A DNA stretch of 64,000 nt, from sequence record MN850580.1. The stretch is one strand, 5' to 3'. The notes under the pieces were generated by a model, which saw nothing but the letters and a program-made list of their open reading frames with translations, was not told where the DNA came from and made no database searches. The position numbers were made by a program, and so were the translations under genes. Shown here piece by piece: positions 53,343-55,864 of this stretch. This DNA is from Escherichia phage momo. The first letter of the stretch is position 1. The number at the start of each line of letters is the position of its first letter.

Positions 53343-53608
53343 TTCCTCGTTTTAAGAACTGCTAAGATTTCTTTAGAGTCTGGTAAGAACCATGTGTAGT
53401 GATTCTCTTTGATTTCTGGATGAGTGTCAACCTTTATTTTGCACTCTTTACCAACATGCTTAAGCTGTGCTGTGACACCTTGCATAAAGATATGACACAT
53501 CACGTTGTCCATAATGGTTGGTGAGAAATCAACACGCATATAAGTTTCTTTTGGTCGTGGTAGTAGTAAGTACCCTTCTACATAGAAAGTGTCTTCATTC
53601 TCTGTCAT
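53339..53608 (-). CDS. hypothetical protein
   Basis: 89-aa ORF. Confidence 0.45.
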   Translation of the reverse strand: MTENEDTFYVEGYLLLPRPKETYMRVDFSPTIMDNVMCHIFMQGVTAQLKHVGKECKIKVDTHPEIKENHYTWFLPDSKEILAVLKTRK

Positions 53609-53874
53609 TGCTGTTTGTTTCCTAATAAAATCATATCAATAAGGTTATTAGCTTTGATTGTGCACTGGTAAAAACCATCACGATAAAACTCAAGGGCTGC
53701 TGCCACATTACTACCAGTATTACCTTTGACAGTGAATCTTGACTCTTCTTGAGTGTACTTGTCACTCTCACTTACTTGGGAGTTTTTGAATGTACTGTTC
53801 ACTTTGTTCGTTGAACACCCTGACATAATTATCAGTAACACAAACATTATAAAACTCTGGCTTAGTCTTTTCAT
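53605..53874 (-). CDS. outer-membrane lipoprotein, o-spanin candidate
   Basis: Signal peptide with lipobox IMSGC; start lies inside the i-spanin-like gene in another frame. Confidence 0.45.
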   Translation of the reverse strand: MKRLSQSFIMFVLLIIMSGCSTNKVNSTFKNSQVSESDKYTQEESRFTVKGNTGSNVAAALEFYRDGFYQCTIKANNLIDMILLGNKQQ

Positions 53875-54115
53875 ATGTTAGTACCTCTTTTGTGTGCTTA
53901 TTCTTAGCAAGCACGTCTTTCAAATCATTTTTGTAATTGGTGCTGAGTGTGGCTAAACCTTCCTGATAAGCATCTTTAGCAACACTTATTAGTTTCTCAT
54001 TATTTAGCTCAGCTTCAGCAACTTGGTAGTCTCTGTAAGAGTATCCTCCCCAGACACCTGCCCCAACTAAGAAAACAATTATGAAAGTAGCTTGACAGAA
54101 CTCTTTAAATGTCAT
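53768..54115 (-). CDS. i-spanin candidate (N-terminal TM + periplasmic coiled coil)
   Basis: ATFIIVFLVGAGVWGGY helix then charged helical region; overlaps lipoprotein gene. Confidence 0.45.
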   Translation of the reverse strand: MTFKEFCQATFIIVFLVGAGVWGGYSYRDYQVAEAELNNEKLISVAKDAYQEGLATLSTNYKNDLKDVLAKNKHTKEVLTYEKTKPEFYNVCVTDNYVRVFNEQSEQYIQKLPSK

Positions 54116-54132
54116 TTAACAATCTCCTGAAA

Positions 54133-54157
54133 TGAAAAAGGCTCCAGAAGGAGCCTG
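54133..54157 (-). terminator. rho-independent terminator
   Basis: aggctcc-agaa-ggagcct followed by T-run on minus strand. Confidence 0.6.
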
Positions 54158-54167
54158 TATCTTAACC

Positions 54168-54632
54168 TTAACCGAGGACTTTAGCAAGGACATTTGCAGC
54201 CATCGAAGAAGCTTTTGCAGCAGCAGCTACCCCAGCTTTGACAGTGCTATCCTTGATAGCAGATACCGTTGCAGCATCAGTAAAGAGATAAGTAGTTGTT
54301 TTAGAACCACTTGTAAAGGAAAGCATGAGAGCAGTTTCCAGATTGAAAGAGCGATACGGAGCACCTTCTTTAACGATACCTTCAGCACCTAATTCTGAAG
54401 CCATCCCCATATCATAGATAGTCATCAGGTTTTCTTTGTGTGCAGTCGTTGAACCAGCACCTTTGACGTGTTTCTTAACATTTAAAAGAGCACGATACTC
54501 CCGAATGTTACCGTCTGCTTTTACATTGACAGCACGGAAGATTTTACCCTCAAAGTTGCTCTTGATAATGTTACGAACTACTTCAGATTTGTTTGCTGTA
54601 ACGTCCAGTGCTACCGTGATAATGTTGTTCAT
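54168..54632 (-). CDS. hypothetical protein (Ala/Ser/Thr-rich, terminator-flanked)
   Basis: 154-aa ORF. Confidence 0.5.
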   Translation of the reverse strand: MNNIITVALDVTANKSEVVRNIIKSNFEGKIFRAVNVKADGNIREYRALLNVKKHVKGAGSTTAHKENLMTIYDMGMASELGAEGIVKEGAPYRSFNLETALMLSFTSGSKTTTYLFTDAATVSAIKDSTVKAGVAAAAKASSMAANVLAKVLG

Positions 54633-54642
54633 AAGTTTTCTC

Positions 54643-55338
54643 TCAATGTTTAACTAACATGGTTTTGATGTGTGGAAGGATTCTGTTCACCTTCTGCACA
54701 TTCTTCTCTGTATCTTCTATAAAACATACTATATTAAAGTAAGGTAGAATGCAAGACTGAATCATCCTCACTTTCAAACTTTCTGCACTTATAGAGTTAG
54801 TCCCAAAACCACGCATAAAAAGCATGTAGTCATGCTCTGTGTTATGCCTTAAAAACATCTCAGTAGGTATTCTCTGAGATTCGCCTCTCGCTGTCAAGAG
54901 TCCAACGGCAGCATGATTAGCAATTGCATCAATGATATTGAAAACATACGTTGGTTTTGCTCTTACAGAGTCAAGAAGATTAGTGTACTGTGAAAATGAA
55001 CCATCAGTCAGTTCCGTTGAACAATCTTCGTGATTAAAATTTGTAAGAACACCATCAATATCTGCTAAGATGAGATTCCCTTTTTCTATAAGGTCTTTAT
55101 TGACTATGACTAAACTATCACGTTTTACACCTATGGATTGTCCAGTCTTTTTGTCCACAACGTTCACAATTGGTTCTGATGTGTGGAACTCTTCAAGTGA
55201 ACATACAACTTCTCTTGCGGTGTCTTCAAAATCCCTGCACTGTTCTGGAGTCCATACACAGGAGTCAAGACCTAACTCATGAGGATGTAAGTCATAAGCG
55301 TGGCACAATACTTCATCAGACTTTCTTAATTTTTTCAT
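54643..55338 (-). CDS. HAD-superfamily phosphatase with N-terminal extension
   Basis: LILADIDGVLTNF (DxDG motif I) with downstream hydrophobic/acidic motifs. Confidence 0.5.
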   Translation of the reverse strand: MKKLRKSDEVLCHAYDLHPHELGLDSCVWTPEQCRDFEDTAREVVCSLEEFHTSEPIVNVVDKKTGQSIGVKRDSLVIVNKDLIEKGNLILADIDGVLTNFNHEDCSTELTDGSFSQYTNLLDSVRAKPTYVFNIIDAIANHAAVGLLTARGESQRIPTEMFLRHNTEHDYMLFMRGFGTNSISAESLKVRMIQSCILPYFNIVCFIEDTEKNVQKVNRILPHIKTMLVKH

Positions 55339-55864
55339 GGTTTACCTTAGAAATGTTTGTTGCAAATTCACATTGAGCAATTACTTTCATGTTGTTATAG
55401 ACATCTTGAGAATACTTCTTAGCTTTAGGGATTCTGTACGAATACCCAGCATTATATGATGCTAAGACTTTTTGTAAAGTCTTCTTTGACTTTGGCTGAC
55501 CATGTACCTTTGTCCAAAACTCAAGTTCTTTGTGCGTTTCCTTCGCAGCATAATCAAAGTCTTTTAAGAGTTTCTTTTTAGCCACATTAGGACTAATTTT
55601 GTTACGCTTTACAACAGTCTTCAAGTGATTCTGGAAGATACCATAATCATGTGTCTTTTTATTCTCTACCTTCAGACCTAACTCTGACTCTTGTAAGGCT
55701 ATAGCAGCTAGAGTGATACCCCAACCTTTACCCATGTTATTCTCACCATACTGGTAAGCTTTTAACATGTTTACTTTTTGGCTAATTGATAGCTCTGGGC
55801 AGTCAACTGCATAAGATAAGTGTGCTGTAAACATTAAGCACAAACCTAGAATCAATTTCTTCAT
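55316..55864 (-). CDS. secreted lytic transglycosylase-like (SLT domain) protein
   Basis: Signal peptide MKKLILGLCLMFTAHLSYA; SLT motifs ALQESELG, YGIFQ, ASYNAG. Confidence 0.6.
   Translation of the reverse strand: MKKLILGLCLMFTAHLSYAVDCPELSISQKVNMLKAYQYGENNMGKGWGITLAAIALQESELGLKVENKKTHDYGIFQNHLKTVVKRNKISPNVAKKKLLKDFDYAAKETHKELEFWTKVHGQPKSKKTLQKVLASYNAGYSYRIPKAKKYSQDVYNNMKVIAQCEFATNISKVNHEKIKKV

Follow-up and report, generated by a model that had tools for sequence, protein, structure and literature searches.

Overlapped spanin genes, dispersed lysis genes and a predicted Vs.1-type transglycosylase in the Felix O1-like Escherichia phage momo

Introduction

The spanins of phages lambda (Rz/Rz1) and P2 (LysB/LysC) each consist of a type II inner-membrane protein and an outer-membrane lipoprotein, the latter encoded by a gene that begins out of frame within the gene of its partner, and each subunit carries a periplasmic Cys; the lambda genes are embedded, while the P2 genes are overlapped. 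In T4, the spanin genes pseT.3 and pseT.2 are "separated" and are unlinked to t and e, and PseT.3 has no periplasmic Cys (PMC6139136). Among the spanins catalogued by Kongari et al. 2018, those of Felix01/FO1a/UAB_phi87 and of FSL_SP-010/FSL_SP-012 were classed as overlapped, and the same study proposed, as a rule, that spanins have one or more Cys in the periplasm through which homotypic intermolecular disulfides can form (PMC6139136). Here, we analyzed the corresponding genes of Escherichia phage momo (sequence record MN850580.1) in a stretch of 64,000 nucleotides, hereafter called the window, in which a spanin-like gene pair (53605-53874 and 53768-54115, minus strand) lies close to a gene for a soluble lytic transglycosylase (SLT)-like protein (55316-55864, minus strand).

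The arrangement of the lysis genes in this group of phages has also been described. Scattered lysis genes were published for phage Meda (PMC6486253), and the announcement of phage Moogle, in which a putative holin was named, reported that lysis genes are scattered in Felix O1-like phages generally (PMC4319497). In the Felix O1 genome paper, no holin gene was found beside the lysin, "as with coliphage T4" (PMC3185647).

By its sequence, the window is the genome of a Felix O1-like myovirus (Felixounavirus). The region 53400-56000 showed 97.4% DNA identity to Escherichia phage nataliec and had matches covering 80% or more of it in 252 phage records, almost all of them from Felix O1-like myoviruses, and the hosts of those Ounavirinae/Felixounavirus records were Escherichia, Salmonella, Shigella, and Citrobacter. 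The G+C content of the window was 39%, a figure that is also on record for Felix O1.

A previous interpretation made from the letters of the window (the sequence-only reading) had proposed a spanin-like pair, dispersed lysis functions, and a secreted transglycosylase that may act independently of holin gating. All the open reading frames (ORFs) on which it drew were present where it had placed them, with the spanin genes and the SLT-like gene on the minus strand, and it was largely right, although the lysis role that it implied for the transglycosylase was unsupported. Our interpretation, to which as a whole we assign a probability of roughly 0.88, is that the window encodes overlapped spanins within a T4-like scatter of lysis genes, together with an accessory transglycosylase of the Vs.1 type. 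The spanin pair and the scattered layout are already known and are ordinary for Felix O1-like phages; nothing about them is new.

The spanin genes

The i-spanin gene (53768-54115, minus strand), which encodes 115 residues, matched phrog_1152, "Rz-like spanin", with an E-value of 8.9e-42 and is publicly annotated in nataliec, Meda, and Mordin. The o-spanin gene (53605-53874, minus strand) encodes an 89-residue precursor with a predicted mature form of 70 residues and matched phrog_4180 (4e-50), as well as the Rz-like spanin family phrog_456 (5.6e-4). Many GenBank Felixounavirus records label both genes, as i-spanin and o-spanin, and these annotations, the family matches, and the listing by Kongari et al. 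bore out the spanin-like pair of the sequence-only reading. Searches of both spanins against Pfam and NCBIfam gave no meaningful match, and PHROGs alone recognized them.

Offset by 1 in frame, the o-spanin gene has its start within the i-spanin gene and ends 163 nucleotides beyond the i-spanin stop. The two genes share a dual-coding overlap of 107 nucleotides (53768-53874, minus strand), in which the C-terminus of the i-spanin, with C92 and the FNE motif, is encoded against the signal peptide and lipobox of the o-spanin. With the o-spanin gene running past the stop of its partner, the arrangement is overlapped, as the sequence-only reading had it in its title, and not embedded, as its text put it. 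The spanins of Felix O1 and FSL SP-010 are the same genes, with 96-97% DNA identity across the region and with both the overlapped architecture and the place after rIIA-rIIB in common, and there was no difference of substance from these catalogued pairs; some records use a Met10 start for the o-spanin or omit the gene.

The N-terminus of the o-spanin is composed of an MKR n-region, a hydrophobic core, and a lipobox (M-S-G-C) with Cys20, and a GAGG ribosome-binding site is found upstream of Met1. Residues +2 and +3 are Ser21-Thr22, and the Asp that would signal retention in the inner membrane is thus absent. Chance alone seldom yields lipoprotein-like ORFs: two occurred in the six frames of the window, compared to a mean of 0.07 in shuffled sequences. 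The other lipobox-like ORF (26703-26897, plus strand) lies antisense within a structural gene (25538-27013, minus strand) and is most likely spurious. In 312 phage records, a match spanned 80% or more of the o-spanin ORF, and both the C20-S21-T22 triplet and C71 were invariant in the homologue alignment, down to 31% identity. The o-spanin start varies among public records, with Met10 in nataliec, where the charged n-region is lost, and Met1 in Meda and Mordin, and the gene is unannotated in Erwinia phage Pistou and Proteus phage Isfahan (loci compared for start and annotation: 53605-53874 in the window, L001:6206-6427, L006:4001-4276, and L008:about 3019-3240).

The i-spanin gene is preceded by an AGGAG ribosome-binding site, and its product has a single hydrophobic segment at residues ~7-25 (KD15 2.14), with none elsewhere. 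This segment agrees with the membrane anchor in the earlier description of a "membrane-anchored coiled-coil protein", while the coiled coil was not confirmed. A single-sequence AlphaFold2 (AF2) model of the i-spanin suggested helices at residues 27-36, 40-55, and 59-71, at a low predicted local distance difference test score (pLDDT) of 51. C92 and F101-N102-E103 were invariant in the homologue alignment, C92 down to about 30% identity. With C92 in the i-spanin and C71 in the o-spanin, an invariant Cys of the kind named in the rule of Kongari et al. is present in the predicted periplasmic part of each subunit.

Homologues of the pair were also found in another setting. In Proteus siphophage Isfahan, genes for an i-spanin homologue (phrog_1152, 3e-18) and for an overlapped o-spanin that lacks annotation (phrog_2425, 1.2e-18) come directly after those for a Phage_holin_8 protein (PF16931, 9.7e-14), a small membrane protein, and a CHAP-domain endolysin. 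The Isfahan pair thus belongs to a canonical cassette of holin, endolysin, and spanin genes, and this setting supports a spanin function of the homologues in the window. All the features of a spanin that can be tested in sequence were found, save the coiled coil, and on these grounds the pair is a two-component spanin of the overlapped class.

Compared to lambda, the pair is overlapped (107 nucleotides) rather than embedded, and unlike the genes of both P2 and lambda it lies outside a lysis cassette; no sequence similarity to these spanins was found with the Pfam or NCBIfam libraries. Like PseT.3/PseT.2 of T4, it is unlinked to the endolysin and holin genes and is located within a pseT neighborhood, but the T4 genes are separated where those of the window overlap, and the window i-spanin has C92 where PseT.3 lacks a periplasmic Cys. 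In addition to the adjacent rIIA and rIIB genes, pseT-like, tk.4-like, and vs.1-like genes surround the spanin genes of the window, and nearly the same gene set is found in the Aeromonas phage phiAS5, a T4 relative, in the order Tk.4 - x - PseT.3 - PseT.2 - Vs.1 - x - PseT. This T4-like neighborhood indicates that the scattered layout of the lysis genes is an inherited genome plan and no peculiarity of this phage.

Endolysin, holin candidates, and proposed mechanism

The endolysin gene (38528-38992, plus strand) matched phrog_7 (4.4e-58) and the NCBIfam family BgtA (1.3e-36) and is annotated as endolysin or lysozyme. The product is a GH24 enzyme of the T4 lysozyme type without a hydrophobic N-terminus (maximum KD19 0.81), i.e., it is predicted to be soluble and without an export signal. 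Its gene is located 14.6 kb from the spanin genes, in line with the 15 kb and the opposite strand given in the sequence-only reading. The dispersal of lysis functions proposed there was likewise borne out, and was already in print for Meda, Moogle, and Felix O1.

A 123-residue protein (4989-5360, minus strand; phrog_4038) is annotated as "holin" or "putative holin" in many Felixounavirus, Mooglevirus, and Suspvirus records, some of them curated. It is predicted to have one N-terminal transmembrane domain (TMD) and a helical periplasmic domain, and the holin label appears to be a topological guess. Immediately upstream is a gene for a 64-residue protein with an amphipathic/hydrophobic N-terminus (5361-5555, minus strand; phrog_402). 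These two small membrane-protein genes abut one another just downstream of the gene for an 843-residue tail fiber. They may constitute a holin/antiholin pair, with no known family matched. The sequence-only reading had listed 5361-5555 among its holin candidates, and this gene indeed adjoins the annotated holin, although it matches no known family; 4989-5360 itself was missed, and no candidate was confirmed. The others were 41313-41846, which has two strong TMDs and is annotated just as "membrane protein", and 48487-48819, with a weak N-terminal hydrophobic stretch at best.

Drawing on the paradigm of lambda Rz/Rz1 and T4 PseT.3/PseT.2, we propose that the i-spanin would be anchored in the inner membrane by its N-terminal TMD and that the o-spanin, once cleaved by signal peptidase II and acylated at Cys20, would reside in the outer membrane as a lipoprotein. 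The C-terminal periplasmic parts of the two subunits would pair, forming a complex that bridges the inner and outer membranes, with homotypic disulfide links via C92 and C71, the one conserved Cys of each subunit. Intact murein would hold this complex in check. Release of the GH24 endolysin (38528-38992) from the cytoplasm by a holin (candidate 4989-5360) would then lead to degradation of the wall, and with the wall removed the spanin complex would disrupt the outer membrane.

The Vs.1-type protein

The SLT-like gene (55316-55864, minus strand) encodes a 182-residue protein that matched phrog_600, a family of "unknown function", at 1e-57, covering 1-170 of 178; the vs.1 product of the T4-type phage RB7 matched the same family at 2.1e-68. 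By tblastn, relatives were found in 2,127 phage records, several of them annotated "Vs.1", from Tequatrovirus and other Straboviridae, Kuttervirus (Ackermannviridae), vibriophages, and Ounavirinae, and the protein was 100% identical to that of FSL SP-010. A comparative paper of 2006 noted the similarity of vs.1 to SLT and took it to suggest "some role in cell lysis" (PMC1524935); this paper was the only literature on Vs.1 function that we found, with no functional study.

The three motifs of family-1 lytic transglycosylases are intact in the sequence of the protein, including the predicted catalytic Glu. Across 15 homologues, E59 of the catalytic Glu-Ser was invariant and S60 at least 90% conserved; in G75xxQ78, G75 was at least 90% conserved and Q78 invariant; and Y137-N138-x-G140 was invariant. 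The N-terminus is of the Sec type, with MKK followed by 11-13 hydrophobic residues and a predicted cleavage site, SYA/VD (signal peptide ~1-19), and an N-terminal hydrophobic segment was found in every full-length homologue. A lipoprotein reading of this N-terminus (L-G-L-C9) was rejected, given the Leu at -1, the mere 8 residues before the Cys, and the lack of conservation of Cys9. In the 15-homologue set, Cys22 and Cys165 were present or absent together, a pattern that fits a periplasmic disulfide.

The AF2 model of the protein had a pLDDT of 84.7, with the signal peptide disordered, and the protein has the goose-lysozyme/SLT (GH23) fold. When the single sequence was searched against PDB with phmmer, no match was obtained, while a profile of 15 sequences reached EtgA (best match, E=7e-4) and g-type lysozymes. 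The secreted SLT-like transglycosylase of the sequence-only reading thus stands as a prediction, with its Sec-type N-terminus and three SLT motifs.

T4 Vs.1 is similar in its full-length match to phrog_600, its length of ~180 residues, its Sec-type signal, and its SLT motifs. At ~32% identity, the window protein differs from it in having the Cys22/Cys165 pair and in being encoded after rIIB and not beside regB. EtgA is a small periplasmic lytic transglycosylase of a secretion system, and the window protein, also small and Sec-exported by prediction, resembles it in architecture. The similarity to EtgA-type enzymes is remote, however (17-19% identity), with no secretion machine encoded nearby, no known partner protein, and no link to a trans-envelope machine. 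IpgF, IagB, VirB1, and P19 are further specialized small periplasmic lytic transglycosylases of secretion systems.

Vs.1-family proteins are labeled "RegB endoribonuclease" or "similar to RegB" in Erwinia phages Tian and Pistou, in Escherichia phage teqdroes, and in a note of the Mordin record (loci: 55316-55864 in the window, L006:562-1074, and L007:1010-1558); the label appears to be a misannotation passed on from T4, in which regB and vs.1 adjoin. The most distant homologue (P0020) is recorded as an SLT-domain protein of "Campylobacter coli". A bacterial origin was rejected, as its 214-kb contig carries a gene for chimallin, the PhiKZ nucleus shell protein, beside the homologue (L012:6001-6582 and 8019-9953), pointing to a jumbo phage.

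On the minus strand, the gene order is rIIA, rIIB, the SLT-like gene, "polynucleotide kinase", a gene for a 154-residue protein (orf154), i-spanin, o-spanin, small ORFs, and a macro-domain protein gene, and nataliec, Meda, and Mordin are annotated with the same order. An intrinsic-terminator-like hairpin (55928-55951, minus strand) is located between rIIB and the Vs.1-like gene, where a terminator is annotated in Meda and Mordin, and a second one, with a T-run (54139-54156, minus strand), between orf154 and the i-spanin gene, again with a terminator at the equivalent place in these two phages. These hairpins suggest that the Vs.1-phosphatase-orf154 unit is separate from the spanin unit. A promoter scan gave 13 promoter-like sites compared to 11 in shuffles, and with no excess over shuffles we drew no inference about timing.

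Based on its sequence features and setting, the Vs.1-type protein is most likely a Sec-exported, soluble periplasmic enzyme with an accessory function in murein remodeling, and most likely neither a lysis enzyme nor a spanin partner. The suggestion that it may act independently of holin gating therefore stood as far as export without a holin is concerned; nothing shows that it belongs among the lysis functions.

Alternative explanations

Several points weigh against the interpretation of the window as encoding overlapped spanins, scattered lysis genes, and an accessory Vs.1-type enzyme. The mature o-spanin (70 residues) contains no proline, unlike lambda Rz1, and its lipidation is predicted. 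The topology of the i-spanin, with an N-terminal TMD anchor and the bulk of the protein in the periplasm, is predicted as well, and its coiled coil was not confirmed by the low-confidence single-sequence AF2 model (pLDDT 51). Disruption of the outer membrane by the pair would follow by analogy with the described systems. In BLASTP comparisons, the window spanins had no detectable similarity to PseT.3/PseT.2 of phiAS5, and the parallel with T4 is therefore one of synteny and architecture only. Absence of detectable similarity between spanins is usual. The candidate holin (4989-5360) had no match to a Pfam holin family, and its role is putative. For the Vs.1-type protein, the score against PF01464 (SLT) was 19.2 bits, narrowly below the gathering cutoff of 21.3, the phrog_600 members of RB7 and phiAS5 scoring 25.1; the signal peptide was called by a rule of thumb; and the accessory role assigned to this protein is the weakest step, essentially a default.

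The Vs.1-like enzyme could instead be a second, holin-independent lysin, exported by Sec, building up in the periplasm, and materially aiding lysis. The conserved Sec-type N-terminus, the intact catalytic motifs, and the GH23 fold are what such an enzyme would have, some records label the protein "lysin" or "putative lysin", and no holin has been confidently identified in this phage group. fOg44 Lys44, P1 Lyz, and phage 21 R are Sec-exported or signal-anchor-release (SAR) endolysins, each the sole endolysin of its phage and encoded in the lysis cassette, and in them, too, a murein-degrading enzyme reaches the periplasm without a holin. The window differs in that a canonical, separate GH24 endolysin, predicted to be soluble and cytoplasmic, is present, another gene is widely annotated as holin, and the Vs.1-like gene lies outside any lysis cassette, directly after rIIA/rIIB in the rII/pseT region, with a terminator between it and the spanins. 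Moreover, its signal is short, typical, and apparently cleavable, without the Gly/Ala-rich character of a SAR domain. In T4, which encodes Vs.1, no lysis occurs in e (endolysin) mutants; the Vs.1 family is therefore insufficient for lysis there. We consider a second lysin unlikely.

A related proposal is that the Vs.1 family has a specific, unrecognized role in the envelope, for example in holin-independent priming of murein for spanins or rapid lysis, or in control of superinfection or lysis inhibition. The latter idea is grounded in the recurrent placement of the gene near rI or rIIA/B. In Acinetobacter phage Kimel (L011:3408-5254), Vs.1 stands at the head of four predicted periplasmic proteins encoded in a row, up to rI, the lysis-inhibition sensor, and in RB7, rI is found ~2.5 kb downstream of vs.1; this proximity may point to a place for Vs.1 among the periplasmic genes of lysis control. 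The family is present in >2,000 genomes, from T4-like, Ackermann-type, Felix O1-like, and chimallin-encoding jumbo phages. We give such a specific role only a small chance.

It is more doubtful still that the transglycosylase and the spanins form one module, in which the enzyme would open the murein locally for spanin assembly or action. The distance between the Vs.1-like gene and the spanins is ~1.2 kb in Felixounavirus and Mooglevirus and ~2.7 kb in Kolesnikvirus, Vs.1 comes directly after PseT.3-PseT.2 in phiAS5, and the closest solved relatives of the protein include EtgA, a transglycosylase specialized for a trans-envelope machine. However, this linkage is not a conserved one. Vs.1 lies beside regB/vs/tk.4 in RB7, and not beside the spanins, and it lies with rI in Kimel, and no spanin is annotated near the Vs.1 homologue in Matapan and D482. 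Furthermore, a metagenomic relative with a 37%-identical Vs.1 (L014) keeps the order rIIA - rIIB - x - Vs.1 - HAD_PNKP ... orf154 homologue ... Macro, and no TMD/lipoprotein pair was evident at the corresponding position of this locus. On the basis of RB7, Kimel, Matapan, D482, and L014, we rejected a conserved linkage of Vs.1 and spanins. In the window, a terminator separates the two units, and in Isfahan, the 6-kb locus of the cassette with the homologous spanin pair has no annotated SLT gene.

Many phage SLT/GH23 domains are part of tail or internal virion proteins, and RB7 Vs.1 had weak PHROG matches to "lytic tail protein" and "internal virion protein", raising the idea that the SLT-like protein is virion associated and pierces the murein during DNA entry. 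A cleavable secretion signal would, however, take the protein out of the cytoplasm, where virions assemble, and its gene is located in the rII region and not among the structural genes. The Felix O1 virion proteome consists of the products of gp23-gp77 only (PMC3185647), and the homologue is gene 3 in wV8, the numbering of the two phages being equivalent, as we infer. A virion protein is thus very improbable. Finally, that the 89-residue ORF is no real gene but a chance out-of-frame ORF within and after the i-spanin gene is hardly credible, even though several records omit it (Pistou, Isfahan) or give only "hypothetical protein", since lipobox-type ORFs were ~30 times rarer in shuffles, homologues down to 31% identity, in another virus family, retain the ORF with its lipobox Cys and C-terminal Cys, and the ORF is preceded by a GAGG ribosome-binding site of its own and matches PHROG families.

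For annotation, the analysis supplies the correct o-spanin start, shows that this gene is absent from several records, and replaces "embedded" by "overlapped". The remaining interest lies in the Vs.1 family, which is widespread among large virulent phages and predicted to be an exported enzyme that cuts murein.

Neighboring genes

The rIIA homologue (57154-59520, minus strand) is annotated as rIIA in nataliec, and the rIIB homologue (55965-57074, minus strand) was identified by phrog_609 (8.7e-89) and by public annotations. The macro-domain protein (51531-52316, minus strand) is a homologue of the T4-type Tk.4 (BLASTP against phiAS5 Tk.4, E=4e-14) and carries the note "macro domain" in Mordin.

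The PseT-like protein annotated "polynucleotide kinase" (54643-55338, minus strand; phrog_3970, 4.7e-134) is recognizable only in its HAD 3'-phosphatase half, residues 84-214 aligning with residues 168-287 of phiAS5 PseT (BLASTP, E=0.022), and no kinase half was seen in this alignment. Its N-terminal 80 residues are Cys-rich, and in Meda the counterpart of the gene is split into two. At the phosphatase gene of the diverged relative L014, there was a faint HAD_PNKP match. The next gene, orf154 (54168-54632, minus strand), encodes a conserved 154-residue protein of phrog_2267 with an Ala-rich C-terminal tail, and a homologue was found in L014 at 7954-8367, as read by eye from the translation. 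The Vs.1-like, phosphatase, and orf154 genes have been kept near one another in L014 despite the 37% identity of its Vs.1, which suggests that they travel together.

Just upstream of rIIA, a 58-residue ORF (59549-59725, minus strand; phrog_3931) encodes a protein with an N-terminal TMD followed by a Cys-rich tail of the CxxCxGxG type, resembling a DnaJ-like zinc finger. Two records assigned to other hosts, GU169904 (Staphylococcus phage SA1) and MG065664 (Campylobacter phage A132), contained Felixounavirus genes at ~97% protein identity and are probably contaminated or mislabeled.

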